Shown here in pieces: positions 22,368 through 64,000 of a stretch of DNA of 64,000 nucleotides. The DNA lies in contig CAWCFT010000004.1 of NCBI GenBank assembly GCA_963794945.1, positions 224,001-288,000 of the forward strand, written 5' to 3'. The position numbers were made by a program, and so were the translations under genes. The stretch comes from Endomicrobiales bacterium. GTDB taxonomy: Bacteria; Elusimicrobiota; Endomicrobiia; Endomicrobiales; CAWCFT01. A model generated the notes under the pieces. It was not told the DNA's origin, searched no databases, and saw only the letters and a list, made by a program, of their open reading frames with translations. Positions within the stretch are counted from its first letter, which is position 1. The number at the start of each line of letters is the position of its first letter.

Positions 22368-22374
22368 TTTACCA

Positions 22375-26100: not shown

Positions 26101-26113
26101 TTTATTACCACGC

Positions 26114-29888: not shown

Positions 29889-29970
29889 AAACTCATTCCT
29901 TAAAAAATCTATTCGCCCAAAATTTTAGAACTTCGTTCGATCCGCATAACAGTTCAACTATTCGGCCTGT

Positions 29971-31661: not shown

Positions 31662-31874
31662 GAACATGCTCCGTATTCAGGCGTTGAAAACACTACAATA
31701 CCGCGGCAGTGCCCGGCATATTCGCAAACAATAAAATTAAATCGTTTCAGAGTGTTATTAATGGGTAAAAACGAAGGAAAAAAGGCGTATTTTTTTGTAT
31801 TTGTCATTTGGAGTTGAAAAACAGGCTAGTTTTGATTTAATTAGCCTGGCTGCATAATTGTTTTCTTGTTTATA

Positions 31875-32864: not shown

Positions 32865-32910
32865 CATAACGTCATTGCCGTGATTTGTGATATGTAATTC
32901 TTATCTAAAT

Positions 32911-33777: not shown

Positions 33778-36700
33778 CTAGTGTATTATACCTATCTTCC
33801 TTATAGCGGTCACAACACCCTGGTCGGATTTAACTTTTATCTGCGCTATGTATCCGCCTTTCGCGACCTTCATGCCGGACCCGTTAGAACCGTCCCACTG
33901 AACACGGTTCGCTCCCTTGCTTCCGCCTTGAGAGCCCGCGGCAAAAGTCCACGAATTGACCAGATAACCGAGCAGGTCGTAGAGCGTGATAGTCACTTCC
34001 GCGTCCTGGTTAAGAATATATACGATATTTGTCTTTGCCAGTTCTCCGCCTTTTCTTGTGTCAACAGGGTTCGGGAAGTTAGACACCGACGAAATAACCG
34101 ATGTCGGCAGGCCGGTAGTCGCGGGCGCTGACTCTGCGGACCAGGGGCCCCATGTGCCCGCGTTGTTCTGTGCCCTTATACGGTAATAGTAGAAGTGCCC
34201 TTGCGGCCTTGGGTTATCCGCGACAGAATTCCCGTTCACATCATGAGCAACACCATCGCCAACGTTAATGCTGAAGTATGAACCGCCTACAAAGTCAACA
34301 TCTTTCCAAACGGGGTTGGTATCGCAGCGCTCCTGGATCTCGTACAGCGACACGCCTGACTTCCAGTTTGGCGTTGGGGTCCAAACTACCTGATATATTC
34401 CTTTTGTCGCAGGCTGGGCCCCAAGTTGAGCTGTAGCGGGTATAACGCTTGTCGGCGCAGCGGGAGCGGAAAGGTCAAGCCTTAAAACACCCCAGGTTAC
34501 GGGCGTTTCACCCGCAAGGTCAGTTTCTGCTTTCACCTGGAAGAAATATGCGCCGTTCGTTACCTGTACCCCCTTGTAGTGGTTCTGTATTGGAGTGCCG
34601 AAACAACCGCGGGTTATATTATTTAATACGTTCGTCGCTTTGCCTGTAAAAGAGATTATCTCCTTGTCTATATAGATATACCCAACGCCTCCGCTTATAT
34701 TGAACCCGGCTGTGGCATCCTGTCCATAATTTGGATGGCCCGTAGGATACTCGACAGATACGCTTCCTGCCGTCTGGGTTGCAAGGAAGTCATCTGCGAG
34801 AAATACCACAACGGGTTCTGTAAGCGCGAGCCCATTTACCTGAATGGCCGGGCTGGCCGTTGAAGCCCATCCTCCAGAACCAAGTCCGCTTGACGCGTCT
34901 TGTGTTGTAGGACGCGTGCCAATTGCGGCCTTATAAGCGGATACATTTGCGTTTTGAACTTTTAACACGTTCCAATTCGCGTTAACTGTTGTATTAGAGT
35001 TCCACCACACCGCATCATTTATGCCCGGCAGATCGGTGCGCAGATTAACAGCAAGAATGTTGAGGTCAGAAATGCTCGTGTTAACTGAATTGTACGGGAA
35101 CGCGTTAGTCCCGGCTGACACCGCGGTGATAGGTGTAATGTTCATAGCCGGGTATGATACCAGCTGCAAGCCGGCCGTATGGCCAAAAGTAGGTTTTCCG
35201 CCGAGATCGCTCGTGCCTATGTCAACGCTCACGTAGAATATCTGACCGCTTGTGCCCACCTGCGCGCCGCACTGGAGCGTGACAATGCCTCCCGCAAAAT
35301 AACTTGTAGTGTTCGGATCAAGAAGCGGGGTGTTTATCTGCAGCCATCTCTTGTTGGGAATACTGCACAGGCATACATCCGCAGTTGAGCTGAATACTCC
35401 GGAGCCATTGTCTTGCCAAAGCTTAATGCGCTCGAAATCTCCATCACCCAAACCGAGATAATATCCCACCGTGCTGGGGTTAGAAGCTATCGAGCCCGTC
35501 TGCTGAATAGTAATTGAAGATATTGTCACGCTGTGCGCGCTGGGCACAAAACGCAGCTGAAGCACGCCTACATCTTTTGTGCCCGGCAGGTTCACAAGAG
35601 GGGCGATGCTTGTGCCCTGCACAGTAACGTTTATGGGGAGTATCTGCGCCAGAGAACTGACAAAATTACCTTGCGAATTGAATGGCGCAGTTGTAGGGAA
35701 AGGCGCAACGTTATTAGGCGCCGCAACGGTAAACCATGAGGGGGCGGCTATCTCAACGCCTAAGCTGTCGCCCGCGTACGCCGTGGGTGAAATATCATAG
35801 ACAACAAAATAGGTTTGCCATGACGGTTTCAGGCTTTGAGGCACAGTAAGATTGATGTCCAATGTCGGGCCCGCGCTATCCGCAGGGAAGTAGTCCGTAC
35901 CTGAAGAAATAAGCGTGTCTCCTGCAGATAAAGTGCCGCTGTTGTCTGTATCAGCATAGATTTTCACGTCCTGAACATCGGAATTAGTTCCTCCTGCAGG
36001 CTGGTTTGACGCTCCGGAACCTATCCTTTGTATCCTTAGTTTTGACCATACTGCCTGAGAAACATTACTCTGCATACGGAATTTCAGCACGACAACGTTG
36101 GTATCTCCCTGTGTAACGTTAACACCGGAAAGGACATCCTGGCTGGTCGATATATTCTGCCATGGCCATGGCTGAAATGTGACATTATTTGCATATTGGA
36201 CTATAGGAATATTAGGCGTTTGGTACGGAGATGCCTTTTGGAACGACACGAGGCCAGGAGTGTCAACCGTGATGTAGCCAGTGTTCGCTATCTGCAACCC
36301 TACTGTATCTCCTACAGTTGCCAGTGAGTTCAATGTGTAGGTAACGAAATAATTCACTGTACCCGTAGAAGGTATTATCTGCGGGTTTTTAAGCGTTATG
36401 TAGCAGGTCTTATTGGAGAAGTTCTCTGTGCCGTTAGATATAAGGCCGGGATAATTGCCGCTGGCATCCTGCGTTGAATCCACAGAAGTGAAATTACCGT
36501 CTCCATCCAGGTCTTTCCATATCTTCACCAGAGAAATATCGTTATCGACACAGTTACCCGTAAGGTTAAGCTTAATACCCTGCCAGATATTTGTATTCTG
36601 GTTCGCGGTCATTGTCAGCTCCATTATCGCGGTATCCTGGGCATTCTGGATTATGCTGGCAGGTTCAACAATGTTATAACTGACGCTCATTGTATTAACA

Positions 36701-39700
36701 GTCAAGCTTAAGTATGAATATCCGGACTGGAACGGGAACGGAGCGGGAAGAACTGTATGCACTACGTTTCCTCCGGCGGATTAACTTCAACATTATCGCT
36801 CGTATTGCACCCTATGCTTATTACCGAGCCTTTGCTTGAAGTTTGGTTGACATCCATAGTAACCCAGTAAACAGTCGGCGTGGCCGATATCAGCACATAC
36901 GTGTTACCTGAACCGTCAACTCCATCACCGGCAAGGCGTACGCGAGATTGGCCTGCATACGTGTTGCCGAATACGCAGGAACCGGTTGAAATTAGTGTCT
37001 CAGCCCCAATAAGCCCGGTTATGGGGTCGCGGTTGAGCACACCGCTGCCGTTATCCCTCCAGACCTTTATTGCCGTAATATCAGTGTCTTTCCCTGAAAG
37101 GCCTGCCGGCACCAAACGGCTGAAATCTACGGCATACCATGGCACCTGATACCCGTTACACGACAAAGTAAGTTTGAGCATAGGAGCATTCAGTGTACCC
37201 TGTTGGTAGGAGGGCGCAACCTGAGTCCCTGCGCTGTGCGGTACAACCAAAGTGTTCCATGCTCCGCGCGTAAGGCCGGTAAATGAATTATTCCCTGTAT
37301 TGACTGAAGTATAGAGTATTATTTCTGAGTCAATAACCAGCCCGCCGCTGGTAGGGAAATTAGCTACCGGTGAACTAATAAATATGCTGGTGTCCGCCGT
37401 GCCGAGGCTCTGAGCAAGAGGCGCGACGTTCAAGGCTTGAGGCACGACAGTTACCTGCCTAGGCGAAGCGGTGATAGTGCGCAAGGTTGAAACCGTAGGG
37501 TTGTTAACCGTTCCCAGGGTATTTGGAGTTGCGACCGTCATGCAATTTGATGCAAGGCTTGCGCCCAGAGTATTTTGTGGCAGCGCCGTGCTGTTTATAT
37601 CATAAGTAATAAAGAAACGCATTGTCCCTCTTGCCGCAGTTATGAGGTCGCTGAACACGTTCGGCGTCACGGTGCTCACAGCAGCTGTGTATGGCGACGT
37701 TGAAAGCACTATGGCATTCGTAGAGACAGTGATAAGCGCCTGGCCGGCGTTGCCCACGTTGCCGAAATAGCCCTGGCCAATTACATAATCGTTTGTAGTG
37801 CCGAGATCGAGTATAGAATTATTATTGCCGTCAAACCATAGCTTGACCGCCGTCACGTCGGAATCCTGCGCCGTGCCCGTGCGGTTGACCGTCAGCGTTT
37901 GGAAATACGCGTCGGACTTAGCCGTCTGGGCTGTAAACGTGAACACGCACTGATTGGTCGCACCCTGCATCAAGCCGGGGCCAAGCGTTGACTGTTGCGG
38001 ATTAACCGTCACGGTATCCGGATATTTCGTAACGCGGTCTATCGTAGAATAGAACGACACTGTCTGCACCTGTTTCGGCGCGTTCACCTGGAAATAAGAC
38101 GTATTGTTAATGTTGAGGCCTATCTGGGTTTCACCGAGGTTCGCTAAATAATCTATGTCGTATGTTATGAAATACGTTTTATCTTCGGCCATATCGCCCA
38201 TCGGCGATGTCATTATCTCCTGGCCGTTCTGGGTGCCTATGATCGGGATAACAACAGTTGAAGAAACAAACACCCATGTTCTGCAACGGCGACGATACAA
38301 GCTTATCCACTCCCGGTTCCATAAGGCCGTCACCGGTCGCCGTAACTGCGTCTCCCACAGAGTGGATTATCGGCGCCGTGTTTATGTATCCTCTTGAGAA
38401 AACATCCACTGATGTCGAAGAAAGTATCGTGTCATAACGCATGATCTCGTTGCCTATATAAAGAACACCGTGTGGCCCGAAGAAATTCGTCGTAGTCAGA
38501 TAAACAGTTCCGGTAGTTGCCGTCGTCATAGATTGGGCTAGTTGAGCCACACCGCAGTCCTGATAAACCTTTACAGCGTCCACATCGCTGTCGGAGTTCA
38601 GGCCGACGGTATTCCTGCGGTCAACCCTCAAACCGGACCATATAACGCTCTTAGCGCTGGTCTTTAGTTTCATGCGTATAAGCGGCACATTCGCCTGGCC
38701 CTGGGTAACCGCTCCGATACCAAGTGTAGCGGCATTGTCAACATTGTCAATAATAAGGCTGTCCGCGGTAGCAACCAGCTGGCATATGCTGGATGTCGCC
38801 GGGAAAAGGGCATATTGCGAGGGCACGGTGTTAGCCGCCATTACGCCTTCGTTGAAATGGAAGTTTTCCTTAGCTTCTATTTCCACCCCCAGTGTTTTGG
38901 TAATATCCGCCCCGTCAGCCGTTCTGGTAAACAATATAGAAATACTGTGTGGCCTGTGCTATCAAAGCAGGAGTATTAAGCGTTATATGCGCGATTCCCG
39001 TGTTGAATACCGACGGAGGGCTTATCGGCAAACTGCCGCCGCCGAACTTAAAGATACCCGTGCCGTCATCACTGTACAACATACATGAAACAACGTCATT
39101 ATCACCGGCAGTGCCTGTCATGATTACATCGACTCCGGTCCATATAGCGTTGTACTCGGGTGTCCAGAGGCCGATCTTCATCATTCCGGTCGCCGGATTA
39201 CCCTGTTGTATCGTCGGATACTGTGCAAGAGGTAGAGGACCGGAAACACCGTCGGGGTCATACCATGACGCGATATCTTTGACAGCAAGATAAACCGACG
39301 GCGGCTCTGTTTGGACCGTTGACGAAAAACTTGAGAACGGGAAATTGTTCACGGCAAGCTTCGCCACGCCCACGGGCGTTACAGCTCCTATCGGAAGGGT
39401 CAACTGCAAGGTCGCATTCTTTGTTGCAGTTGACGTCAGGCGCACGCAAATGAAATATGTTTGCAGGCTCTGTGTTATCTGCTGTATGTGCGCCGCATCC
39501 AACGGGATTATAAGAGTACAAGTATTCTGTGTATTGTCAACGAAAGTTCCACTCGACAAGAACTCATCTGTGGCGCTGCCATAATTACCCAGAACTGTAT
39601 CTCCTTCGAACATCCCGTCACCATTGGCATCCCTGTACAGGTCAACTTCCGCTATGCTGTCGTACCCTAATGAAGTGCCTGCGATATAAGTTTTATTCAC

Positions 39701-42700: not shown

Positions 42701-45700
42701 CGAATACACAAGAGCTGTGTCAAACGCTGTCACAGTCCATGTTGATGACGCAACCTGCGGATTAACTATCTGTATGGCGGTTCCCTGGTTGTTAAGTGTC
42801 TTCGCCAAAATACCGTTGGTAGCAGCGCTGTCCCATGAATTAACGCCAAAGGACGGCATGTCTATGTTCGTTATCCTGTTATAATAAATATCGGTAAGGT
42901 TGACCGTTATCTGCATCCCGCTGGGGTCGCCCGCCACTTTCACCAGGGGCGTACCGCTCTTTCCTCCGGTGCCATTGTAAGGAGGCAGGCCCGGCACCGC
43001 CGTTTCACCCGGCACAAGCACCTGTAACTGCGAGGGCGTAGAAGGAGCTAGCGTGAACTGGGCGGATGTATCCCCTAAATAAGTGTGTCCCGGGTTTGTT
43101 GCAGTGACTATATGTGAGGTTGCCGCCGTTATCAGCGTGAGAGTGAAGGTATTTCTGCCGCTAACCAGGCTTGACATTGCAGGCATAGTGCCGTACTGGT
43201 CATCTGAAGTAATGTTAACGTTGGGCTGGACCGCCACTGAATTTACGTTATAGAACTGGTCAACAAGGTTCACTGTGGCGATGAACTTCGTGCCGGCAAT
43301 CTCTTGCGATATAGCGCCTGTCTTACCAGTAGGCGACCCGGCTACGGCTGTAGTGCCCGGAAGCAGCAGCTGCAGCCTTACCGCGAAGCCGCGTTAACCG
43401 TGAATGTCGAAGAATTATTAGCCCAGTAGAGAGGTGCGATATTATCAACATCTTGTATCTTTATATATTGTGTAGTGGCAAGCATCAACGAGTTAGCCCC
43501 AAAAGTGAATATCCTTGTTCCCGAACCTGTATCAACAGGCGCTGACGCGGGAGCTACACCGTAAGTGTCAAGCGGGGCATTGACTTGCATGACTACCGAC
43601 GTGTTCGGCGCCCTGTTCCAGTACGCGTCGCAGATAGCGCCTGTCACGCTAAAAGCAGTGCCCGCGGTCTGGGCGACAGGTGTTCCCGTTTTGCCGCTAG
43701 CTGTACCTCCACGGAAATCTTCACCCTGAAGAATAACGAGCAGTTTTTGCGCTGTTCCTGGCAGAACCGTCACGCCTCCTGAAACACCGGATAGAAGCAG
43801 ATTGCTAGTATCAGCGGCGTTTACCGTGTAGGTAACTGTACCTGTAGAAGCAGTTACCATTGTTACCGGCACAGTAGTAGACGTCACCATGAGCCCGGTC
43901 CATTCGGGGTTCGGTATAGCGTTAGGGTTTGTTGTCCAGAACGTTGATTATTGGTGATGTAGATGTAAGATTCCAATAGTCGTCGCAAACGTTGATAGTT
44001 GAAGTAAAGGATGTACCGGCGTAAACGCTACCGGGGCTGCCGGTCTTCCCAAAACCAGGGAGCGCGGTTTCGCCCGGCACAAGCACTTGCAGTTTTTTCG
44101 CAACGCCGGGGATCACGTTTATTACTGATGAGTTATAAGGCCCGCCTAAATTCTCCGGAAGGTTCAGCCCCGCATCAGCCCCGGAAACCGTCGTGGGCTG
44201 CGCTGTATGGAGCTGACATGTTGCGGTGGCAACACCGCCTGTCATAAGTATATTCCCGGGGTCCAAATCGTAAGGGTCGGAGGTGACAAAGCTTATTGTG
44301 TCGTTGACGCTCGGTGTCAGGTTGAAAACCCTGTCAACCGCGTACGCGGTAACAACAAAACTCTGGCCAACCTGCTGCGTAACCGGCGTGCCGCCCCTGC
44401 CGACAGGAACGATATTTCTGCCGTTGACCTGTGTTTCACCCGGGACAATAACTATCAACTGAGTCGGAGCGTTCGGGTTGACGCACACAGGCGATGAAAC
44501 ACCGGTTACATAACCGCCGCCGGATGCGGTTATGGTTTGTGTTGCGGCAGTAACGAGGTCAGCCGCGTATGCGCCCGAGAAAACTACTGTTCCGCTGACG
44601 AGCGTCCTTGCGGTAGGCGTTGACCAGTAAAGGTCTGTCGAACCAAGTGTCACCGACGGCATTGCTGTGGTGACAATTACCCTGTTCCAGTAATTATCAG
44701 TGAGGTTCACAGTGACATTGAACGCATCGTCTGCTATCTGCTGGAGCACTGACCCTGTCTTCCCGTTGGCATAACCCGGCACGGCTGTTTCACCCGGAAG
44801 AATTACCTGAAGTTTCGTAGGAATATTGTAGTTTACATAAACCGGAGATGACACGCATGTAGTAAGAATGCCGGCCGTGTCAACCGCGGAAATGGTCCAA
44901 GTTGAATTTGTGATCATGTCAACTACAAATGCACACACACCTCCAACGAGAGGTGCTGTCGCGGGCTCAACGTCATATGGGTCCTGGGTATAGATATGCA
45001 CCTGCGATACGTTAGCAGATACGGTGTTCCAATAAGGGTCTACGGCCCGGGCTGTCACGTTGAACGGAACTCCGGCGGTTTGCACTGACGCTGTGGAATT
45101 CTTTCCTCCTCCGCCGCTGGAAGTATAAGGCGGCCTGCCGGGGTCATAATTCTCTCCTGGCAGCAGCACCTGCAATTTTACCGCGTCAGAAGAAACTACC
45201 GTGAACTGCGTGCTTGTGTACTGTGTCATCGGGTGGCCCAGGTACGGGTTAGTGACCGGGTTTTGCAGCCCTGTCGCCGTTATTGTTTGCGTAGTCGCGG
45301 TAAATAGTGTGTTCGTGAAAATACTAGTACCAGTGGCATCCAGGGTTGCGGTCTGGCTTCCGCCCGTGGCGACATCATCGTAATTATCTGAAGTGACCAG
45401 CTGTACGAGTGAAGTTTCTCCGGGCACCCTGTTCCATAACGCGTCACAGCCATAAACCGTTGTCTGGAATGGTAATCCCGCGATACGGTTCGTTGGAGAA
45501 CCACTCTTGCCCGTGGCGCTTCCGGGGTTATATGTTTCACCCGGGACAAGCGTGATGAGTTTGATAGCGCTCCCGGCATTCACCCAAACGTAAGAAGAAT
45601 AGGCGATCGGCAAACCGGTAGACTGGCCGGTCAATTGCCTGTAGCCGTTAGCCGTGTTGAAATACCACGGTATGGTGATCGATGTTCCGGAAACACCATA

Positions 45701-48700
45701 GGATGTGTTGTTATTAACATCATTCGGATCGGATATATCCGTCATCGTGACTATCAGCGTTGAACTTGTAAGGTTCCACCAGCTGTCCACGAGGTTTACA
45801 GTGACATTAAAGCTCACGCCCGCGGTTTGCGCCGTGACGGTGCCGGTCTTGCCGAACGGCTGGACGTTGAATTTACCGGGAACACCTGTCTCACCGGGCA
45901 GCAGTATCTGCATGCGCGCGAGGTTGCCGGACTTGACGTTTATATTGCCCGTGTAATCATAGTTGTAGCTGGTTGCCGTAGCGGATGCCGAGCACACTCC
46001 CAAAGTCACAAGGTCCAGGGCAAAAGTTGTCGTGCCGTTAATGAGAGACGCCGGCGCCGGCTGCGATGCATATGGGTCAATGGTAGTGACAGTAACGTTC
46101 GGCGTAGCAGTCGTAGGGTTATAATAGAAATCGCACGCGTCAACAGTCACATTGAACGGCACGCCTGCTGTTTGGCCGGAAGGTGTTGCCACGGTCCTTC
46201 CGCGGCTCGTATGGTTGCCGGGCTGTGCAACCTCTCCAGGGGCAAGTATCAGGAGCTGATTGGGCGCACCAGGCTGAACATAAACTATAGATGACGTGCT
46301 TGGCGCGACCCCTGAATACGAGGCTATTATTGTCTGTGAAGAATATGTCACGAGCTGCATATAGAATGTTGTCTCGCCGCCGGCAAGAGGCTTGTTAGTG
46401 ACTGCCGGGCCGTAGAGATCGGTATCTGATATGCTCACAAGGCCCGACATATCGTTCCTGAGGTTGTAATACTGGTCAGTGCCCATAACCGTGATATAGA
46501 ACGGTGTGCCGGCAACCTGGTTTTGAGGAGTACCTGATTTGCCTCCGGTCCCGTCATAGGGAGGTTTACCTGGGACAAAACTCTGTCCGGGCACTATCAA
46601 GTGCACCTGGTAAGGCGCCGCGGCCGTGACTGTGAACGTTGAAGAAACGTTCGACGCGTACAAAGGCGACGCATCAGCGTCAATCGCGGTGAGCAGGTGG
46701 CTGGTGTTGGCTGTAAACTGGGTCATCTGGAAAACACCGGTACCTGCCGTGAGAGACGCAGTTGCCGGTTCTATATCGTAGGTATCGTTCGAGCGCAAGC
46801 TGACCAGCGGGTTCGCGTTCGGGTTAACGTTCCAGAACGGGTCTGTGCAGTTGACCGTCACGGGGAACTGCACGCCGGCTGTCTGCGTATTAGGAATTCC
46901 AGTCCTTCCGTAGATAGTGTTAGATACGGGTGTTTGGTTCGGAAGCAGCACCAGAGCCGCGTGGCGTTCGCGGGGTTAACGTGAATATTGTCGGAATTCG
47001 TTTGCCCGTAATACGGCAGAGTCGCGTCGTCGTGTTTCGCGGTAAGCGTTATGTTGCTGTTGCCTGTCATAAGCGTTATGTTATAAACGGTTGAACCGTT
47101 TATAAGCGTCTGATTGAGCGGATCCCAGCCGATCCCCGTTTGTGAGCCTGATTTATCGTTTGGATCGGTCGATGTCAGTTTGACCAGCACGCTGACAGCT
47201 GGCATGATATTGTTAAAACTATCGACACAGTCAACTGTTACGTTGAAAGGAACGCCGGCAGTCTGTGTAGATGTAACAAGAGTATTTTTACCGCTCGGCG
47301 AGCCGGGAACGTGCAATTCTCCGGGCACGATCACAAGCAGACCTGATCCAGTAATCTGCGGCCTTACAGTGGCGGTGTCAGAACAGGCAATAAATGTAGG
47401 CGACACGTTATCCTGAGCAGCTGTGATAGTATTGAAATTTGCACCTGTATCCTGATAAAGCGTGGCGCTGTGAGGAGTAATAATGAATGTCGTTGAACCG
47501 CTTATGAGGTTTGCGGACACAGGAACAGGCTCATAAATGTCCGTAGAAGTGACCTTTGTCAGGAGGTGTTTTTGTTGGGCTTATATTCCAGTATTTGTCG
47601 CAGGCATTAACAGTCACAACAGAACCCGCTCCGGCAACCATGGTTGATGGGCGAACCTGTCCTGCCGCCAACACCGGGGGTCGCGTAAGGAGGCCTGCCG
47701 GGCTGTGCTGTTTCACCTGGCATAAGAAGTTGCAGGTAGAAAGCATTAGCGTTGTCCGGGCCCACGCTTACGTTTTCAGTGCCGGCAGCAAGATAGTTGT
47801 TGCCGGGAGTAGTGTCCGTTGCAGTTATAGTGGTAGTCCTGCTTGAAGAGTTAAGCGGGCCCGCGTTGCCTGTTATAAGGGTTGAAATGAATACAGCGTA
47901 TCCGCCAACAAGCGCCTGCGGCGCGGCTCGTTATCGTAAGGATCATTAGAAGTAATGGTTACTGGTTTGCGTTGAGTTTGCCTGGTTCCATTTAGAGTCT
48001 GTCGCGTAGACCGAACACATTGAATCCTGTTCCCGCGATCTGCGCGTTAGGCGTGCCTGTTTTCCCCGTGGGCGAGCCCGGCACAAGGCTTTCGCCCGGC
48101 AGGAGAACCAGCAGGTTGCTGGCCGCGGCTGGAACAACTTTGACGTAAGTTGACACATATCGCGGCGAAGTTATCTCCGGTCGCGGTTGAAGCGGTGATC
48201 TGCCAACCCGTAGTAGTTGCGGTGTAAAGGCTTGTGAATATTTGCGCCACTCCTCCGCTTGTTGCTGCATTTGCGGGCGGGGCGTAGAACGGATCTGTGG
48301 CAGAAAGTTTAACTGTGGTGTTTACTGCATTTGTGCAGTTGAAATACTGGTCGACTACCCTTACCGTTACCTGATTAAGGGTGTTAGCGGTCCACGTGCC
48401 GGGCGTACCGGACTTGCCTGTCGAAGAGCCGTCAACAGCGGTCTCTCCCGGAACAAGGAGTTGAAGTTTTGTCGCCGCCCCGTAATTCGATGTAATTGGA
48501 AGGCTCGTATAAGATGAAAGTGTTCTCACCGCTCAGCGGTTGATGCAGTAACCTTATACGACTCGCCAACTCCGCGATGGAATGTCACATTGAAGGTCTG
48601 CACGCCGTTAGTTGTAGACGCGTTCGGAGGATTCGGTGCGTATGGGTCTTGAGTTGTGATGGATATAAGAGCTGTGGAAGAAGCGACCACGTTCCACTTG

Positions 48701-51700: not shown

Positions 51701-54700
51701 GGCAGGAGCATAATCAGCTTCTGGTTGCCCGAAGGGCTGACTGGTACGTTTGCGCTCGTTGTATCAGGATATACATGTCCCAGATCATCAGCGGTCAGGG
51801 CCCAACCGATCGTCGTTGCTGTTATGAGCTTCCAGTTCAGTGTGGTCTGGCCCGTGCTGCCGATCGAGAATACGTTATTATGTCCCGGGCTGTCGTAGCC
51901 CTGAGGCCAGGTATCGTTAGCGTCGGTCGCGGTGATCTTTAGGCCGGGTACCGAGCCTCCCGATATCTGGTTAAAGTAGTTATCTACAAGGTTCACAGTA
52001 ACTATAAAATCATTGCCCGCGGTCTCGAAAACAGGGAAGCGCCGCTCTTTCCGGTGGACGAGCCGGGCACCGCGGTTTCATTAGGAACAAGCACCTGGAA
52101 TTTTGAAGCCGTGCCAGTCTGTACGGTTATGGGAGCATTCGAGTTCGTATTGAATATATAGTCGGCAAGCGACGAGTCGGTATTGTGATTGGTCATAATA
52201 AATGTGCCCTGGGCGCGCATAAGCGTCACGGTGAACGTGGAGACATTCACAAGCGTAGCGGTTGACGGGCTGAACGTGGCATAGGGATCGTTGCTGTCCT
52301 GCGTCCCAAGCCAGCAGTAAACATTTGTTGAAGAAATGTTCCAATAAGCGTCGCATGAGTAGACAGTCACAACGAACGGAACACCCGCGGTCTGGTTTGT
52401 TACCGTGCCTGATTTTCCATAGGGCGCTACATTGTATTTAGCGGGAACGTAAGTTTCACCCGGGTTCAATACCAGCAGCTTGCTCGGGTTCCTCGGGCTG
52501 ACAGGGAAGGTTACGGTTTGAGTAGACGTGTAGTTGGACCCGTCAACATCATTGACGGTTATATACTGGGTAGTCGCGTTATAAAGAGTTACGTTAAGCG
52601 TGTTCTGCCCCGCGATCAATTGCTCCTGAACAGGTGTTGATACTTGCTGGTTATTGACTCTGCCGTACTGGTCCGTAAGAGTGAGCTGTACTGTTGGCGC
52701 TGACAACAGTACTTTGTTCCAATATGCATCGGTAAGGCACACTGTGACAGTGAACGGCGAACCGGCCTGCTGCGGCGACGGTGTAACGAGTTTGCCGTTT
52801 ACCGAGCCTCCCTCGATAGTTTCGCCCGGCAGCACCAACTGAAGCTGTGTGGGTGTATTCTGCACTACGTTGATCCCCGCAACGGTTTGGCTTGACCATA
52901 CAACCGGCCCTTCGTTATCTATGGCTGTCAAATTCCAAGAACCAAGCGTTGTAAGCTTTACCGTATTGGCAAAGTTCTTGGTACCGTTGATAAGGCCTAC
53001 AGGGCCAGGTATAAAGCCCCAGCTGGCCGCGTAGGGATCAGTTGTCAGCAATGCAATTTGGCGCGAGCCGATAGTGTTTGTATTCCAGTAATTGTCGCAG
53101 GCATCGATCTCCACACTGGCAAACGCCACGCCGGCTGTCTGCTGGTTGGGCGTGCCAGAGTCTTTACCGGTAAATGTTCCAGGCGCGGCATGTTCGCCGT
53201 CAACAAGAAGGCGCAGTTGGGTGATAGTCGATGGATTTAATGTTATCCCTGGGGACGTGTCTCCCAGGTAGCCCGTGCCGCCGTCATCAATGACATTGAC
53301 CGTTCTGTTCCCGGCGGTTACCATGGTAACTGGGAAAGTCTTTGTTCCGCCTACAAGCTGCGCCTCCGGCGGCAAATAACTGAAATAGTTATTACCGGAT
53401 GTTTCATTCGGGTCCGAAGTCGTTATCTTAGCGACCGGCATAGTAACCGTCGATACTACGTTATAGAACCTGTCTACAAGGTTAACGGTCACATAATACG
53501 ATGTGCCGACCGTCATCTGGCTGGGCGTATTCAGCTTGCCCCAGGTTTGTGATGTGCCGAATAGATTTGTCTCGGGCTGGTTCGCTTTTCCGGGGCATGC
53601 AGTTTCTCCGGGAACAAGGAGCTGAAGTTTTGCCGCAGTCGTGGGCCCAACATAAATACCATCCGAGGTCGCACTCGACAGCGCTGTCCCCTGATAAACT
53701 GACGCAGACACATAAGAAGTCGCTGAAGTCACAAGAGTTATATTGAAAGTAGTTGTACCGTTTGTAAGCACCTGGGTCGACGGCACAATACTAAAATTAT
53801 CGCTTGTCACAGCCGCGATATTCCCCGCATATGTATCCACTTTATTCCAATAATAGTCGCAAGCGCTGACTGTCACGGTGAAAGGCACGCCCGCAACCTG
53901 CTGTGCAGTTACTGTAGTGTTCTTCCCGCCAACCTGGCTTGTGTAAGGCGGCTTGCCGTAAACTCCGGCCTCACCCGGCACAAGCATCAACAGGCGGTTT
54001 GCCGCAGCGCTCTGAACTGGAACATTTGCCAGTGTTGACTGGGTCAACGGACCGGCCATGTCCTGAGCCGTTAATGACCAATTCCCTCTTGTCACGAGCG
54101 TTACGGCGTATACTGTTGTACCCTGCGGAAGGCCGGACGAGTCAGTAAGGTTCTTGCTTATCTGCGCGGGTGTGGCGTATTGGTCAGTTGTAGTAAGTTT
54201 AACCGTAGTTGAGGTGGAAGGCACAACGTTCCAGTAATTATCGCAAGCGTCTACGGTAGCGTTGAACGATATTCCAGCCGTTCGAGTTTGCGGGCCGCCT
54301 GTTATGCCGCCAACCACGCCCGGCGCCCTCGAAACCCCGGGTGAGAGAACCCTTAATTCTGTGGGCGCGGTGGTATTGACGCTTACGACCTTCTGTCCGC
54401 TTACGCTGTTGTTATTTATATCGGTGACAAAGATCGTCCTTGACCCGTCCTTGACAAGTTTCAAGGTTCGAGAAGAATAATTAATATTAAATATCTTGAC
54501 TCCCTGGTCAAGGGTCGTGAACTGGTAATCATTAGGCAACCAGCCCTGTGTATCGCCGGCCGTGTACACATACTCAGGCCCGCCGGGCGATGTTATAGGC
54601 CCGTCAACACTGAACCTTATGTCTCCCTGGTAATTACGCGCCGGATCTCCGTTCTGGTCAACAGCCTCAACCTGTACGCTTACCGGATCGCCGGCATTAG

Positions 54701-57700
54701 GGTTCTGCGTATTTACAAGTGACACGAGGAAGCTCTGTGCCGGTAAGCTCACTGAAAAACTTGTCCATGGCTCAAGGGTGTCATCCTGAACGTTGCCGGC
54801 TTTATCGGTCGCACGCGCTTTAACGATATACCATCTTCCCGAATACCACTTATTTGTCATGTCCTGCGAGTCCCAGTTGGTGCCTCCTGTTGCGGTCAGC
54901 CAGTACGGAGATATGTCAGCGCTGGGCAGGACCGTCCATGTTGAACCGTTCCAGACGTAATCGTACAGCGGGACAGGTGAACCGGTCTCATATGATGTGG
55001 ATTCCAGTATTATTACGTACTGGACACCGCTAGCCTGTAAACCGGAATTGTTTACCGCGCAACCATTGTCAGCTGCCGTTCCGCCTATATACTGAATATT
55101 CTGAATATACTGGTTTGCCATCGGCGTGACAACCTGGCCGCTCACAGGCATTATCGCTTCAGTAACGCAAGCCGTAGGCTTTGTGATATCGTAAATGAAT
55201 GTTGAAGAAGATATTATCGCTTGCGGGTTATTAATGTTATCAAAACCCTGGGCCATGACTTGGTAATAATGTCCGTCGTTCAGGTTTGAATTTAGCAGGG
55301 GCTGGAAATACTGCCAGTTGACAGTTACTCCACCCGGCGCCACGGAGCTTATGGTTATCCAATATTGATTAATATTTGTTTGCCAACCAACTGACCCCAG
55401 GCCGTTATCTGTCCAGTACTTGCTGGTCCCGCCGCTCAAGTCCTGTAGCGATATATTCACGCTATTGACGCCAGAGGTTGCATCCCACGATGTTCCTGAG
55501 ATCGTTGAAAGGCTAGTGTAAGCGCCGTTGTTTTGCGGGTTCAGTATCTGAGAGACAGGACCGATATTATCAAAAGTGAAGGTCGCCCCTCTCACTGAAT
55601 ACCAGTTTTCTATATTTCCCGCTGCATCCCAGGCCCTTGAAGTGATGAAATATGATGTGCCGCTCTGAAGTGAATTACTTCCGAGCCCGTTGTAAGTCCA
55701 GTTTGAAAGCCCCGTCGGGGTAAGCGGCGATATGGTGCCCTGGTCGAAAGCTGTCGAACTCCACCATTTGCCTGTTTGGAGGTTCATTATCGCTATCTGC
55801 ATAATAGTCAAACCGCTTGGCCCGGACTGGCCAACAGTTATCGGCAGGTCTAACGACGTACCGGATATGTTCGTCAGTGAAGAGATATACTGGCCGTTTT
55901 GCGGCAGGAAAACATAGCTTTGCGGCGGCGTTGTATCGTAACGGAAAATGGACGTTGAATTTACCGTTGAATAATTGCCCGCGGCATCCTGAACGCGGGA
56001 ATCGACTTCGTATTTATAGCCTGAAGTCCAAACAGTGAACGTCGCCTGCCAGACTGACCAAGTAGAAGATGCGTTCATGGCAGGATAACTGAACCATGCC
56101 GTATTCGCGGTTAATGGGCTGGGGCTGAAATCATCCCAGTTATTTATGCTGCTCTTCCAGTACCGTGAAGCTACGCCGTCCCATACCCTTATTTGAACTT
56201 GTGATAGCGGGTAAGATTCGTTCGCCGTGCCCGAAATAATAGGAAGGCTTACGGCATTGTAGAATTGATTCGGCGGATCTATCAATGATGGAGCCGGCAG
56301 CACGTTGGCTATCGTAGGAACTATCTGGTCGCAGCGCCATATTGACCCGGCGGCGAAGTTCTGTATAAAGCGGCTCTTCAGGGTTGCCGGCCGCATCATA
56401 TGACTTGCACTGTATCTGATACTGCTCGGTGCTGTACCAGGCAGGCAGGCCGGTCGTTTTGGTCCAGAGCTTTAACCCACCGCCCAGGTCTGAAATATTG
56501 TCCACGGGGAGTTCGCTTTGCACTGAAGGGATGCTATCCCACCCGGTCGTGACCCCGTTGTAATACTTGCCTGCCCTTCCGGTACTTCCGTTATCTTGCA
56601 CGCACTTTATGAGCACCTTGACATTTGCTATACCGCTCCTGTTGGCTCCGCCGGTCGGCATATCGTTGGCCGTACCTGAGATAATAGTTATATTCTGATA
56701 GAAACCGCTGTTTACAGGGTACTCAACATAGGACACAGGAGGCGTTATATCGTACAGGAAACTCGCGTTCTGTGTTCTGAGGAGGCCCAGACATCTCAAC
56801 GTTGCCGGCAGTATCTTTGGCCTGCGACCAGAGATAGTATTGATGGGCATCTGCCCAGTTGGGTGTTGAAACGAATGTCCAGTACGCGGTTGCCGAGCGT
56901 GCTCTTGGGCCATGAGACAGGCACAGTATTCTGCCATGAGGTACCGTTCCAGTAAGTGGTACCCTGGGTCACATCCTGTATCAGCACGCCTACGTTCGAT
57001 ATTCCAAAATTATCTACAGCAGTACCCGAAATTGTGGAAAGAGCATTCATTGCCGCGGATATGCCTACTATATTCGATGTCGGGTTTGTGATAGTGTAAA
57101 CAAAGCTTGTTGAGCTGTAGTTTGTTTGATAGTTGCCGATCAATGACGCGTTGTTATAAGCGTTATCATACGCGCACGAGAATATCGTATATGTAGTCTG
57201 GGTCGCAAGCGCGTTCACAAGGCCCGCGTTAGTATAATTCCAGTATGTATTCGCCGGTGTAAGCTGGTAGCTTACAGTTATAAAATTAGGGGTTGATTGG
57301 CTCTGTGTAAATCCGGCGCCGTTCCACCATAGACCTGAAGTGTTGTTCTGTATCGCTATTTGGGTCATTTGTATGCCGGAAGCATTGCCGGAAACCAGAG
57401 GGTCAACTGATGTTCCGGAAATGACGGGGACGGTATTGGTTATCAATCCGTTAGGCGGATAAGCCACCGTGCTTGTCGGGCTAGATTTATCGCAAACAAA
57501 AGTTACCGAGTTCACGCCTACCGTGTACGTATTTTCAACCATGGCCGGATATGATTTATCAGTGGCCTGAGAAAGCATCAGGTATCTATGGCCGTCTGTA
57601 AAGTTAGTGTTGACAAAAGAATACGCCCACGAGGTTGAACCCGTCGCGACCTGCCACATCGACGCTGGAGGAGCGGTGAACGCGCCGGCGCCGTTCCACC

Positions 57701-60700
57701 AGTTATTCGGCCCCGCAACTGAAAGGTCTTCTATGGCCAGCGCTTCCTGAGCGACTCCTGCTCCGGAAGGTTCCGGCGGATTGTCTTCGGCTGTGCCAGT
57801 GATATTGGTAAGGTTGGAATAATACAGGGAGTTAGACGGAACACTTACACGAGAATCCGGGTTTGTGTTGTCATAAATGAACCACGTGTCAAACGCCGGG
57901 ACATCGCTCGCGGCCTCTGAGGAACCCGCAACGTTCCACGCAAGAGATGTAGCGTCGTACCTGTTGCCAGATGTGAACGTCAGCGATGCGACAGCGGTTG
58001 TGTAGGACCATGTTGACTGGTAGAGCGCATCCACCACTACCCATGACGACACATTTGTGTTCTGCCACCCTTGTGAGCCATACCAGCTGCGCAATACTGT
58101 ACCCGAGCCGACATTCTTTTCCTGCAAACGCAAATTAACGTTCTGTACCCCTGAATACGTATCGTATTGGTTGCCTGAAATTCTGGCTATGCTTGAAAGG
58201 TAACTGCCTTGAGCTGGATATGTCACGGTCGAAGTTGGTGTTATATTATCGTAGCTGAACGTTGCTTCGGTATAGGCGGAAGAAGTGAGCGCCACGTTAT
58301 AAGCGAACGCGCGCACGAGATACTGGGTATTGTTTACCCACGTAGGCGAATTCGGGCTGTTGGACTGGCTGTGTGTCCAGAGCGTTGTTCCCTGAGCCGT
58401 GAAGAACTGCGGCGAATTCGAAGTGAACCCTGAATTGCCATCCCACCACAAACCGCCGGGCGGGTTTTGCTCGTATGCGACCTTGACAGAAGCTATACCA
58501 TAAGGATCCGACGCCGTTCCAGATATCGTGGGCAGAGAATTTTCCCAGGCTCTATTCGGAAGCGTAATACCGGCCATAGGAGCGGTATTTTCATAAGTGA
58601 AATACAGCCTGTTGGCGGGTATTATGGTAGCCGGATTCTCCTGGTTGCCCGCACGGTCTGTGGCTATGGCCTGAACCATATACTGATAACCGTTCTGAAG
58701 CGGCGGGCACTGCCACGACCACGTGTATGTCGGCCCTGAGCCACTCACTGTCGCAGTGGAATAGACTGGGCTCGCCCCCTTGTAGTTGAATGTCGAAGAT
58801 GCCGGGTTCCACCAGCACTCTCCATGGTTGGTTTCCAAAATAGCGACAAAAACATTCTGATTGGCCACACCCGCCGGCCAGTCATATGCGGTGCCCGTTA
58901 TAACAGGGATAAAGTTTATAAGGTTCGATCCGCCGTAGTTAGGGTACGTAACCGCGACCGTAGGCGCTTCAACATCAAACATTACGGACGTTGAAGACAA
59001 TATAACCTGAACGTTAGGATTGTTTGCAATTGTAGCGTCAACAGCATTATCTTTTGCGCGGGCGTAAATTGTATACTGCTTTGGCTCGGCCCACGGAACC
59101 GAAGTAGCGTCATAACTCCATGTGGGAGGATTTCCGGCAGCCGTTGTTGCCTGTATCCAATATTGTGTACCCTGGCTCACCCATCCGCCTGCTCCGTTAT
59201 ACCATGTAGTACCCTGGCCTATATCTTGTATCGCTATCTGAACAGACCCTATCCCTGAAAGAGTGTCATTAGCCGTGCCTGATATTAGAGGGACAATGCT
59301 TGCAAATTGAACATTAGGGAGTGTCACTGTTGCAGTCGGGAAATCTATATCGTAAACAAAAGTAACAGTGTTCTTGCCTACACTGTACACCGTCTCAACA
59401 TTCTGCGGAAATGCATTGTCCGTAGACTTGCTCACTATCGTGTATGAATGGCCGTCCTGCATCTTCGATGCATAACCTGAATACTGCCAGTTTGTCGGCG
59501 TTCCCTGCGTAACCAGCCATTTGTTGTTTTCTCCTATCGACGCGCTAAAATCCCACGCCGAACCGGTCCACCCGTAATACTCCCCAAGGGTGTTGTCATA
59601 TATGTAAATACCGGTAATGTTCACTCCTGACGTATCGTCAAAAGCTGTTCCTGAAATATTGGGAAGGTTCCTGTAGTAAACCGAATTAAGCGGCAAAGTT
59701 ATAGTGCTTGTGGGAGCAACGTTATCATATACAAACGTTGTAATAGTGCCTGTTGACGCGTTGCCGGCGCCATCTATTTCCCACGGGGCTATCTGATAAG
59801 TTGCTCCGTTTATAAACGCGTTTGTGATGGTATCAGGGCCTTTTGGATATGTCCAAGTTGTTGTGCCGTTAACAGGCCTGAAATACACTTGGCCGGGCGA
59901 GCCCCATGCAGAACCGGTCCAATAGGAGTTCTGTGACAAAACCCAAATAAGCGATACCATTGTTTGCGTAATACCGCTGGTACCGTCAAATGCCGTACCT
60001 GAAATTGTTCTGCAGCGACGAGTAGTAAGTTATACCAGGCGCCGGAAGAGTCACGACACCTGTGGGATTGCTGATATCGTATGTGAAAGCAGAGCTGGAA
60101 ACCGGCGTTTGGAAGTTAAGTGCGTTGTCCTCGGCCATCGCGCACACCTTGAAAGTTTGGCCGTCAAAATTGTTCCACGGAGGCAGGTTCCAGGTTTGCT
60201 GCCAATTAGCCAGTGTACCCGCGTTAGTCAGCGTGTAAGACGCGGCTGAAAGCGAGAATGACTGAGCGCCCCAGCTCCACCAATTCCCTCCGCCCGCCGG
60301 GTTTTGCTGTATGGCTACTCCGACATTAAGCAAACCGCTCCTGTTGACATTTGCCCCGTCGCTCGCAGTTCCTGAAAGCACGCTTAAGCTGCCTGATTTA
60401 TAGTATGTTCGGCTGGGAAGCTGTATCAATGATGTTGGAGCCGTTCGGTCCCACGTAAACGTTGATATTACCAGCATACTGAAATTGCCGGCGTTATCCA
60501 ATGCAGCCGCTGTAACGGTATACTGTGTGTTGTCTGCCCAAGTCGGCGTATTGTCACCGGTGTTACCGGGGTACAACCATGTGTAGGGATCAGCTGAACC
60601 CTGTAACTGCGTAGCTCTCCAAGTAGTGGTTGACACTCCAAACGATGTGCCGTTCCACCAATTACCGCCAACCTGCTGTATATTTACTACAACATTCTTG

Positions 60701-63700
60701 ACACCGGATTTTGCCCAGGGTAATGACGGGTAATCCTGCACCTGGCCGGATAGCGTAGGCAGAGTATTGTTCGGGCCGTAGTAACCCTGGTTCTGCGGCT
60801 GGACTACAGACACCGTAGGCGGTATAGTATCGAAGAGGATCGTATAGCCGCCCTGCGGGTAAGAATTGTACTGATCGTTCGGCGTTGGATACGCGTTATC
60901 GTACGCCCGCGAACGTATCTTATACCTTCTGCCTGTTTGCCAGGCCGGTACGCTGCTGTATGTCCACGAGCTCTGGTAAACATTGGTCGGATTGAAATAC
61001 TCAGCGGAATTCTGCCATGATGAGCCGTTCCAGTAGGTCGTAGGATATGTCAGGTCCTGGATAGAAACCATCACCTGTCCTACTCCGCTGGCAAGCCTTC
61101 CGGCCGCGGGCGCAATGTCCATCTGTGTGCCGGATATCGTTGCCAGTGAAATGTCATTGGACCCATCGAGCGGGCAAGTCACTACGCTCGTGGGGTTAGA
61201 CACGTCATATATGAACAAGTTCTGGTTCTGGCCTGCGGTATAAATCGATTCCACGTTAGCAGGCTGCGCATTATCCGTAGCTTGCGACTGCACCGTGTAT
61301 GATGTACCATCTACCAAGTAACTAGACCCAATTGAATACTGCCAGTTTGTTGCCGTTCCAAAAGTTGGCAGGGGAGTTTGGGACGCATTCCCAAAACTGC
61401 CTAAACCGTCCCAGTATGCGTTTTTACTCCAGCTGTAAATACTAACCTGAGTTTTGTTAACGCCGCTCGCTGATCCGCCGGTACCAAGGGGATCTATGGA
61501 AGTTCCTGATATGGTCGGAAGCGAACTATAATATCTCCCATTTACTGGCAGCGGAGATATGTAAGATGCCGGAGCTGTGTTATCAAATACAAACCCCATT
61601 ACGTTCCCGGTGGAATCGTTGCCGGCAAAATCCAGCGTCCATGGGGTTATATAATATGTAGTACCACTAACCCAGCTGGGAACATTCGTATAATTCCAGT
61701 TAGCTGTACCGGAAACAACCAGCCAATCAATAGCGCCTGTAATATCCCAACCTGACGAGCCGTTCCAGTAGCTAGTTCCCGACTTGATATTTATGCGCGC
61801 GGTTTGTACACCGGACGTCGCATCGAAAGTTGTTCCGGCAATTGCCGCCATCGTTGAATAATATCCGAATGAAGCAGGCGTGGTAACGGTAGCAGTTGGT
61901 TTCGTGATATCGTAAGAGAACACGAAAGATGAAACAACTACCTGCTGGTTGCCGGCACGGTCCGTGGCTGACGAGTAAATGACGTAGGTATTATCGGTCT
62001 GCCAAGAAGGCAGGTTCCAAGATTGTGTCCAGCCGCTCTGCGAAGAATTTCCGCCATTTACTACGGTCCACGAAGCGTTTGATAGCGAGAATGACTGCGC
62101 GCCCCAGCTCCACCAACTCCCGCCCTGAAGCTGTAAGGACAAGAATGTTTGATTGGGCTTTGAATTTATTGGGTTAGGGTCAGTTGTCGTTCCTGAAATG
62201 GTCGCAATGTTAACGTTGGTGTATCTGGTTGAAGGATATGAAATAACAGATACTGGTGGCGTTGAGTCATACGTAATAGTATATGCCAGAGGAGATGAAT
62301 TGTTACCGGCGTTATCCATAGCCTGGGCCGTAATGGAGTACTGCGTTTGGTCCTGCCACACAGGAATAGCTTGTCCGCCAAGCGAGCCCGGGTATTGCCA
62401 GAAGCCGGCTGAATACTGGGTTGGCACCCATGTAGACTGTACCACCCAACTTGAACCGCTCCAATACTTCGACCCGTTGTATATCTGCAACTGTATGTTA
62501 TTAATGTCGGCACATATAAGCGGCAAAGCCGGCAGGTCTACCGCCGTGCCTGTGATCGCGACCAGCGCTGAAGAGGCAGGGCCGTAGAAACCGTTGTTTT
62601 GCGGCGCGCCTATCTGTACCAGCGGCGGATTTGTGTCATACGTTATTACGTAACCGCCCTGCGGGTACTGCGTGTCCTGGTCATTGCCGCCAGGGACAGC
62701 CTGGTCAATAGCTTTTGAACGGATCAGGTATTGTTTGCCTGTTTGCCACGGGAGCAGGGATGGGTTAGAGAACGTGAAGGTCCACGTGCTTGAGTTGTAC
62801 ACCGTGCTGTTCCAGAATGTCGAGTTGGTCCAAGATCTTGATGTATCGTTCCAGTAGGTCGTGCCGCTCGCTATATCGTTTATCGATATTTTCACTGACC
62901 CTACGCCCGACATAACCGCGTTCGCGAACGGAGCGACATCGTTGGCCGTGCCGGAGATAGTCAGAAGCGCGCTGTAATTTCCGGCATTGACCGGATAGTT
63001 TACCGTTGATGTGGGTGCAGTTACGTCATAAGCGAACGCAATAGAGGTTACACCGACACTGAATGTTTGCCCTGTATTAATGGCATTATCTATACCGCGG
63101 CTTAAGACCATGAAATTGTATCCGCTCTCGGTTTGAGTAAATAGAGTTGGTGGATTGCCATAGGTCCAAGTTGAAATAATCGCACCAGCGTAAGTTACAG
63201 GATTCCCGCCCGTGTAATCAAACCAGTCCGTTCCGGTGCCTGACGCCCAGGAACCGCCTTTCCAGTAATTGCCGGTATTTAGGTTCTGTATCTGCACCTG
63301 AACGTCCTTTACACCCGTGAAATCATCGGTTGCAGTACCTGTTATCTGCGGTAAAGACCTATAAATCACACCTCCTTGCGGAACGTTAAGCCTTGTTGCG
63401 GAGGCTGCGTATCGATCTGGAAAGTTGTTGTTGAAAAATTGGTTTCGACGTTCTGGGCTGTGCTTACCGCTGAAGAGTTCATGGAGTAGGTTTGCCCTGA
63501 AACCCAGTTGGACGCACTGCCGAAATTGTAATACCACCACGTGCCGCCAGCTGTCAGGTTCTGCGTGGTTATCCAGGTAGAAACGTTCAGTTGCCAGCCG
63601 GTTCCGTTCCAATAGAAAGTTGAGCCTGCGTTTTGGTAAGCGATGCGTATGTTGGTATATTGAACGCTGTTAGCAATATCATCGTTTGCCGTTCCGGAGA

Positions 63701-64000
63701 TCGCAATAAGGGCGTTGGTTGAACCGTTATACTGCCCGTTAGCAGCCGGCATAACAACCCCTGACCACGGAGGTATAATGTCGACCGTGCAGCTTCTTGT
63801 TGAATACGGTGTCTCGTAGTTTGGCGTAGGTATTACGTTGTCGTTTGCCACTACCCTAATGCGGTATGTTTGCCCCGACACCCAGCTCGGCGCCTGAATA
63901 TACCAGCTGACAACCGGGCTTGCGGGATAATCTGCTCCATAAACAACCGCGGTACCCATAGTAGCAGATTCGGTTTGTGTAGGCGTGCCGTATGCGTTGT
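33778..64000 (-). CDS. Giant repetitive surface/secreted protein (>10,000 aa, start outside the window), fragmented by about 20 or more frameshifts
   Basis: Consecutive minus-strand ORFs abut or overlap. Where junctions were read (about 36770, 38275, 38925, 43378, 60005), repeat units continue across them in a shifted frame. Composition is uniformly T/S/V/G/N-rich with beta-strand patterning, and there is one terminal domain at 33778. Confidence 0.85.
33781..34095 (-). other. C-terminal T9SS-CTD-like / FlgD-Ig-like domain of the giant protein
   Basis: SNFPNP...IVY.L..DA.VTI.LYDLLG.LV...WDG.N..G..VA.GGY....V.......RKIGIIH-stop. Confidence 0.8.
34115..34480 (-). other. Fibronectin type III-like domain of the giant protein
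   Basis: P.AP....VVW.P....SGV..YEIQ...YYYRIRAQNNAG.WGPWS. Confidence 0.75.
35050..39880 (-). repeat. Giant-protein repeat family C: about 8 units of roughly 160-190 aa with a D-x-[DN]-G-[DN]-G-type loop
   Basis: Recurring QG..n..vl...l....W..l.v.r.G...D.Dv..VK.w.D.ng.G.....D..is.G.f...yfv.ydi...A..G.tlG (manual count). Confidence 0.75.
42665..54370 (-). repeat. Giant-protein repeat family B: about 32 units of roughly 110-125 aa
   Basis: Recurring kLqvLvPGEtavPG..tGKtG.p..qtAG.pF.vtV..vD.ywN.....ttDpy.....L..Gt..F.vtlvTa (manual count of PGE/PNE/PNQ motifs). Confidence 0.85.
54750..64000 (-). repeat. Giant-protein repeat family A: at least 24 Trp-rich bacterial Ig-like units of roughly 125 aa
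   Basis: Recurring yD.t.P.s.v..P....y..l..ISGTa.D..sgv..v.i.iq....yWnG..W....W.y....g..Y.i.s.a.DnAgN (manual count of ISGT-like motifs). Confidence 0.85.

Follow-up and report, generated by a model that had tools for sequence, protein, structure and literature searches.

SprB of Flavobacterium johnsoniae, a giant repeat adhesin of the Bacteroidota, is secreted by the type IX secretion system (T9SS), and to our knowledge Elusimicrobiota fall outside the group in which that system is established. Elusimicrobiota are among the phyla most enriched in proteins of more than 5,000 amino acids (aa), and such proteins are poorly characterised, according to sections of a survey of huge proteins (PMC11573180). 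Passages of a study of giant genes report that proteins of at least 10,000 aa are frequent in this phylum, propose cell-surface adhesion roles for giant genes, and describe how single-base insertions and deletions (indels) in long-read assemblies put such genes out of frame (West-Roberts et al. 2023, bioRxiv 10.1101/2023.11.21.568195). Here we analyse a stretch of 64,000 nucleotides (nt) from an uncultivated Endomicrobiales (Elusimicrobiota) bacterium (GenBank assembly GCA_963794945.1, contig CAWCFT010000004.1, positions 224,001 to 288,000), hereafter the window, and a chain of broken minus-strand open reading frames (ORFs) that runs out of it. We consider it probable that this chain is one 61,450-nt gene for a surface fibre or adhesin that would be Sec-exported and sorted through its C-terminus, and that the breaks in its frame are mostly or wholly assembly errors.

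The gene shares size class, phylum and fragmentation artefact with the giant genes described for the Planctomycetes-Verrucomicrobia-Chlamydiae (PVC) group. In the passages concerned, that study focuses on Omnitrophota, with proteins that reach 85,804 aa and abound in enzymatic and other domains, whereas the present protein consists almost purely of immunoglobulin-like (Ig-like) repeats and a T9SS-like tail (West-Roberts et al. 2023). The huge-protein survey is general, and its sections considered here hold no specific treatment of this gene's family (PMC11573180). Like SprB-type adhesins, the protein would have a long chain of beta-sandwich repeats and a C-terminal sorting domain, in a genome with SprA-like and PorV-family genes; it differs from them in the scoring of its tail and in the secretion components found beside it.

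The window corresponds to G000:C4:224001-288000, where G000 denotes the source genome bin (19 contigs, 2.9 Mb; completeness 85.9%, contamination 5.9%), and positions past its end are given as window-equivalents, that is, window numbering carried beyond 64000. From window 33781 to far past the window end, the minus strand carries stop-to-stop frames that are shifted and mutually overlapping. Between 33,700 and 96,500 there are 51 non-nested frames of at least 60 aa, 25 of which overlap the window; an earlier sequence-only reading of the window had noted roughly 20 ORF fragments there. One of these 25 (59813-60115) is a spurious overlapping frame, and the two uppermost of all listed frames lie upstream of the gene start, in and beyond a separate HEAT-repeat gene. 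Where adjacent frames meet, they either share 4-377 nt, read in different frames, or touch at an in-frame stop.

The sequence-only reading had interpreted the fragments as one gene of more than 10,000 codons continuing beyond the window, and the extended contig bears this out. The gene begins at an ATG at window-equivalent 95227 (G000:C4:319227), 31 kb outside the window, and runs to a TAG inside it (Table 1), giving about 20,480 codons and roughly twice the size of the earlier minimum. Its product opens with MEPSRWSY, after which come a hydrophobic stretch and an ANA/G site, so that the upstream extension which had been proposed as a way to find a start and a signal reached both. As deposited, the frame is not open, its longest uninterrupted piece being 1,764 aa; given its collinearity with intact ORFs elsewhere, it represents a giant gene, exceeding 10,000 codons and lying on one strand between a single start and a single stop.

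Intact orthologues were found in relatives. Comparison of the last 1,000 aa with 40 genomes of the same order gave full-length matches in six of them, at 51-59% identity, and in one further genome the match was divided over two frames. The related Endomicrobiales genomes G005 and G012 contain intact orthologues of 17,339 aa (G005:C6:90173-142201) and 17,969 aa (G012:C31:30985-84894), each a single stop-free ORF (17,343 and 17,970 aa before trimming to the first methionine) with its own N-terminal hydrophobic anchor. When these proteins were aligned to the 61-kb stretch by tblastn, residues 418-17,331 of the G005 protein fell on window 87,230-33,805 in 30 segments and residues 1,390-17,961 of the G012 protein on 84,866-33,805 in 27 segments, in both cases as one collinear chain. 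At 17 of the 29 transitions for G005 and 20 of the 26 for G012, no more than 9 residues were lost or repeated, the frame changing while the residues of the orthologue continued; the bigger gaps in the chains coincide with differing repeat numbers. Alignment to giant proteins of relatives, which had been suggested as a check on the one-gene proposal, is collinear through the junctions in two genomes.

In both orthologues, the order of three repeat zones (A, B and C) and the C-terminal domain is collinear with that of the G000 gene, with identities of 28-57% along the chains and 55-57% over the last 1,000 aa. They differ from it in being uninterrupted, against about 53 lesions in G000, and in length, the G000 gene being some 2,500-3,100 codons longer. 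The N-terminal ~1,400 aa of the G000 gene have no detectable similarity to the N-terminus of either orthologue; within this segment (L002 9034-13227, window-equivalent 91,034-95,227) an FDIAYE..SG-like motif recurs in three fragments. Downstream of both orthologues lies a PorV-family gene, whereas the G000 copy is followed by motA/motB on the other strand. A public contig filed as 'Endomicrobiales bacterium isolate SPRUCE 9' was counted among the related giant genes.

To describe the repeats, profiles for A, B and C were built from the gene's own fragments, and unit equivalents were recorded beside the matches. At the breaks, complementary halves of a profile were found in different frames: for the A unit broken at ~60,005 (Table 1), and for B units at ~52,040 (positions 6-69 and 66-108) and ~51,050 (positions 1-33 and 34-108). 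The breaks thus fall inside repeat units that resume in another frame, as had been claimed from the letters of the window, and all five peptide strings quoted in support of that claim were found where they had been placed. At the ~36770 break EVNPPEET ends at 36765 and SAGGNVVHTVLPAP starts at 36780; at the ~60005 break LQNNFRYGI occupies 60015-59989 and TISGTAFDG 60008-59982; and the string quoted from upstream of 43273, LQLLLPGTTAVAG, lies at 43375-43337. Taken together, the collinearity of the orthologues, the repeat units split at junctions, the single start with its anchor and the single stop support the prediction that the fragments form one gene.

Table 1. Features of the giant gene within the 64,000-nt window
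Feature	Position in window	Strand	Basis and remarks
C-terminal 30.2 kb of giant gene	33778..64000	-	ORF chain, frame tracker, collinear tblastn chains, start region
Terminal stop TAG	33778..33780	-	seven full orthologue matches all end at query residue 1000
C-terminal beta-sandwich, FlgD_ig / T9SS C-terminal-domain-like	33826..34038	-	PF13860, 31.5 bits against cut-off 27
FN3/Ig-like segment (lead only), residues 745-895 of last fragment	34096..34548	-	language-model feature scores
C zone, large modules, 8 matches (6.2 equivalents)	35476..39493	-	profile (128 positions); weak BNR_assoc_N match, E=0.035
Junction of last two fragments, frames overlap 16 nt	36765..36780	-	orthologues continue through
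Non-repeat middle region, ~1,100 aa	39494..42823	-	no Pfam match better than E=0.07; no solved-structure sequence relative
B zone, 39 matches (29.8 equivalents), 108-residue unit	42824..54506	-	profile
Cluster of 19 lesions in ~4.6 kb (18 frame switches, 1 in-frame stop)	47534..52077	-	tracker; 1.3 expected
In-frame TAG inside B unit	49844..49846	-	orthologues read I-N there
A zone, in-window part, 28 matches (23.4 equivalents), 113-residue unit	54678..64000	-	profile; continues to window-equivalent 90,741
Junction inside A unit	59989..60029	-	profile positions 3-66 in one frame, 64-110 in another

Read from its N-terminus, the gene would encode a signal anchor, a lineage-specific head of ~1,400 aa, about 88 A units, about 30 B units, a unique ~1,100-aa region, six to eight C modules and the C-terminal domain. 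The A profile has 105 matches along the whole gene, equal to 87.5 unit equivalents. Within the window the profile counts agree with those of the sequence-only reading, which had given at least 24, about 32 and about 8 units for the three families. The A consensus is W.Y...Y.I.S.A.D.AGN...F.YD.T.PTS...ISGTA.D..SGV...WNG and the B consensus LVPGET..PG..GK.GTP..QTAG.PF.VTV...D.YWN; neither unit has a Pfam model of its own. Both are concentrated in this gene, which holds 98 of the 101 A matches and all 38 B matches found within G000. C modules are larger than A or B units, and five of them contain an acidic K[ILV][WY]xD...G loop. Pfam and NCBIfam searches of the fragments returned almost nothing besides the C-terminal domain, and profile and sequence searches of the Protein Data Bank (PDB) found no relative.

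Relatives of the A unit are numerous. At E≤0.001 its profile matched 8,952 database representatives, a number that falls to 904 at E≤1e-30, and one database protein of 7,169 aa holds 55 A stretches. Three of four scanned relatives match Big_7, Big_13 or Big_3 (PF17957, PF19077, PF13750), some over the cut-offs, and A is on that account predicted to be a divergent bacterial Ig-like unit; for the window's own A fragment Pfam gives Big_13 at E=0.12 and nothing else. The B unit matches repeats in proteins of ~1,000 aa that also bear Big_1 and FlgD_ig domains. The earlier description of part of the gene as invasin-like Ig units was not confirmed: the B profile aligns to residues 446-534 of one such protein (P0016), away from its Big_1 domain (819-871), and Pfam gave no Big_1 or Invasin match (PF02369, PF09134) at E≤10 in B-only fragments or at E≤1 in 38918-42823. 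The FN3 assignment fared similarly: no fn3 match (PF00041) was obtained at E≤1 ahead of the C-terminal domain, and the sole lead comes from a language model (Atlas), whose feature scores to clusters of fn3 and Ig_J are 0.87-0.89.

At the extreme C-terminus there is exactly one FlgD_ig-type domain, in agreement with the single terminal sorting domain noted earlier. Besides the score listed in Table 1 it reached 27.2 bits in a second scoring and 25.5 bits when the whole 1,000-aa fragment was scored. A C-terminal domain of this type also terminates about 20 other ORFs of G000. The Por_Secre_tail models remained below their cut-offs on this domain (TIGR04183, 17 bits against 23; PF18962, 12.4 bits against 27), and this is one respect in which the protein departs from SprB-type adhesins. 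C-terminal RTX nonapeptide repeats are the mark of giant adhesins of the LapA and SiiE type, which use the type I secretion system (T1SS); Pfam matched no RTX family (HemolysinCabind and others) in the last 1,000 aa.

This architecture suggests a route to the cell surface. A Sec-type N-terminal anchor would carry the chain over the inner membrane, and the C-terminal beta-sandwich would serve as a sorting domain. PorV-family barrels may accept that domain and hand the protein to the outer membrane, with an SprA_N-like ORF as the candidate translocon. Once outside, the ~125 beta-sandwich units would extend as a very long surface fibre, for which a role in adhesion or spacing is plausible. Judged by its architecture, the product is most likely a surface fibre or adhesin.

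Candidate components of the route occur in the genome. At least 11 PorV_fam matches over the cut-off are present in G000, and the PorV_fam genes just downstream of the two intact orthologues reach 142 and 140 bits (cut-off 90). Many G000 ORFs with an FlgD_ig-type C-terminal domain adjoin PorV/PorQ-family barrel genes, an adjacency that looks as if barrels were paired with their cargo, although the phylum is not known for T9SS. Examples of this adjacency lie at C6:16313-17542, C13:22241-24784 and C3:45167-46456, and further ones at C15:41482-42777, C15:173051-174324 and C12:80973-82577. The SprA_N-like match (PF14349; G000:C5:40867-41493, minus strand) scores 38.7 bits, over the cut-off, inside an open frame of 1,767 aa, and 22 of 41 genomes from the order carry SprA_N-like ORFs, of ~1,770-1,890 aa. 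PorU, by comparison with SprB-type systems, is matched in G000 solely via a C-terminal tail. One paper found by a literature search on T9SS in Elusimicrobia names the system only within its reference list.

Frame breaks were counted with a three-frame Viterbi tracker trained on long fragments. Switch penalties of 8-12 gave 52 frame switches, one of them an artefact of the start coordinate (hence ~51), together with 2 in-frame stops; a penalty of 20 gave 48 switches. One of the stops is the TAG listed in Table 1. The other is a TGA at window-equivalent 69,415-69,417 (minus strand; L001 6415-6417), where both orthologues have a tryptophan (TTSWFRID*TPP, the asterisk being the stop, against IDWS/IDWT); it is one base from TGG. 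An alternative genetic code was ruled out, as there are just two in-frame stops and these are of two different kinds.

The rate of frame breaks in ordinary genes of the same bin was then taken as a background. Of 231 guide ORFs taken from 400 kb of G005, 161 found an orthologue-grade match in G000; over 189,135 aligned nt, 41 frame changes were present in 35 of these 161 genes. The reversed test, with G000 ORFs against G005 DNA, gave 2 frame changes in 179,517 nt. Break sites are GC-rich (mean GC 0.56 in the background and 0.60 in the gene, against 0.465 for the genome), and no long homopolymers were found at those examined. The rpoB gene, intended as a quality probe, was not found in G000, which is uninformative either way. 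Broken genes also lie within the window and close to it. In aspS (13458-15249, minus strand), the tRNA-synt_2 profile is read in one frame over positions 1-235 and in the next over 235-308; a frameshift in this essential gene points to assembly error. The motB gene (32887-33565, plus strand), directly downstream of motA/exbB (32073-32861), has its MotB_plug and OmpA parts in separate frames. A glutamate synthase fragment (L002 16788-18359, minus strand) starts at profile position 197 of 369, the gene probably being split by another frameshift.

Several observations weigh against the reading of the locus as one surface-fibre gene broken by assembly errors. Concerning fold and export, single A and B units modelled with AlphaFold2 (19 paralogous units as the alignment) reached a predicted local distance difference test score (pLDDT) of 47.3 and 65.3, respectively, and a Foldseek search of the PDB with the B model returned nothing at E≤0.001; the unit boundaries used for folding probably cut through the true domain. 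Furthermore, GldK and GldM, the latter with a control that matched no control genome, were not found in the 85.9%-complete G000, a further difference from SprB-type systems, and the predicted export route is T9SS-like rather than a demonstrated T9SS.

Concerning the breaks, a GC-binned background rate predicts 16.0 lesions for the whole gene, where the tracker finds about 51 (an approximately threefold excess) and the tblastn method 29 (Poisson p=0.002), and 8.0 for the in-window part, where the tracker finds 25-29 switches and 1 stop. Many of the in-window lesions lie in one cluster (Table 1). The neighbouring, unrelated 30-kb giant gene has 4 lesions where 5.9 are expected, and against the two clean in-frame stops of the gene none was judged present in 170 kb of background top alignments. 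Base composition alone was rejected as the cause of the excess, the GC-adjusted expectation being just 16, as was repeat collapse or ambiguous polishing: Tandem Repeats Finder gave a null result and the sole DNA self-match is 132 bp at 75%. Long homopolymers were discarded too. Scans of proteins, genomes and metagenomes found no relative more than 77% identical against which the junctions could be checked: a 189-aa fragment flanked by two junctions had 51 matches among longer proteins, the best at 34-54% identity with partial coverage; metagenome contigs yielded 1 locus, at 41%; and genome contigs yielded 3 loci, the closest of which (77%) covers the last 190 aa only, at a contig end. A search for sequencing runs over window 46000-55999 listed none.

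For the cluster, we prefer the explanation of a locally poor consensus, which would stem from low depth or from a mixture of strains whose unit numbers differ. A bolder proposal takes the cluster (47.5-52.1 kb) as a real, strain-variable stretch of the fibre, in a protein of ~2.2 MDa and ~125 domains that travels by a pared-down T9SS-like route (an SprA-like translocon and cargo-adjacent PorV barrels, with no GldKLMN motor) outside the Bacteroidota-related phyla in which T9SS is established; we offer this as a tentative possibility.

In a second interpretation, the locus is one gene by descent but, in this population, a recently inactivated pseudogene, a sizeable share of its lesions (above all the cluster and the two nonsense codons) being real and lying atop background errors. 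Besides the threefold excess over the GC-adjusted background, the extreme clustering and the clean nonsense codons, the view of giant genes as specific to strains and dispensable speaks for it (Reva and Tummler, as summarised in sections of PMC11573180). We consider a pseudogene unlikely on the character of the lesions. Two clean nonsense codons against ~51 frame switches is unlike natural decay. Bacterial pseudogenes tend towards deletion, to which the gene's pattern of shifts is not an obvious fit. Sites at which one base is skipped (an extra base or two missing, which are indistinguishable) lead by 32:19, as they do in the background (29:12; Fisher p=0.51). At the breaks no repeat unit was seen to have lost a large part, since all split units keep profile halves on both sides. 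The cluster is as similar to the orthologues (40-64% identity) as the unbroken stretches are (43-57%), and the last 1,000 codons, which lie 3' of all lesions, are open, 51-58% identical to seven orthologues and not accelerated (branch length 0.40; median 0.4, sister 0.55). Consensus errors, or else extremely recent events, would account for the breaks better than decay. We accordingly think it more likely that most or all of the ~51 switches and 2 stops arose as consensus errors in a metagenome assembly of the long-read type than that they belong to the living gene.

Two further interpretations can be set aside. Programmed frame changes, by recoding or phase variation, that give variable or truncated products have nothing specific in their favour other than the in-frame TGA at a conserved tryptophan, and they are very improbable given that the sites examined share no slippery motif, that ordinary housekeeping genes are broken likewise and that the orthologues require no frame change. 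Nor is it tenable, in view of the split repeat units, the collinear single-ORF orthologues and the single FlgD_ig-type domain, that the fragments encode small repeat proteins as some 20-50 separate genes, each translated independently, even if gene callers would list them so and several begin with GTG, ATG or TTG, since their starts and ends fall inside repeat units, they overlap one another in different frames, and the hydrophobic anchor is present on the first and the C-terminal domain on the last of them only.

Other features surround the gene. Just downstream, window 21063-31667 (minus strand) contains a type IV pilus or type II secretion system-like cluster with a secretin, PilM, three N_methyl pilins, T2SSF and two T2SSE ATPases. 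On the other side, window-equivalent 109,228-139,064 (minus strand; L003 8228 to L004 19064) holds a second chain that makes up a giant gene of ~30 kb, broken into 5 pieces; it bears no relation to the A, B and C units, and its last piece has GDE_C and Glyco_hydro_77 domains. The 77% relative of the C-terminal 190 aa (L041 1-570) is a 3.3-kb contig filed under 'Candidatus Omnitrophota bacterium'; a mislabelled bin, or a gene family that crosses phyla, may lie behind this.

Nothing known is overturned by these results, as giant genes in this phylum and their fragmentation by indels have already been published. For this genome, about 50 'hypothetical proteins' reduce to one gene that makes up 2% of its 2.9 Mb. 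With about one fifth of the sampled ordinary genes broken, claims drawn from this assembly about gene content, completeness and pseudogenes need frameshift-aware handling. The gene, about 20,500 codons long, is one more member of a conserved family of giant surface proteins in Endomicrobiales, and its C-terminal domain, together with the PorV-family neighbours, hints at the path by which such a protein may reach the surface.

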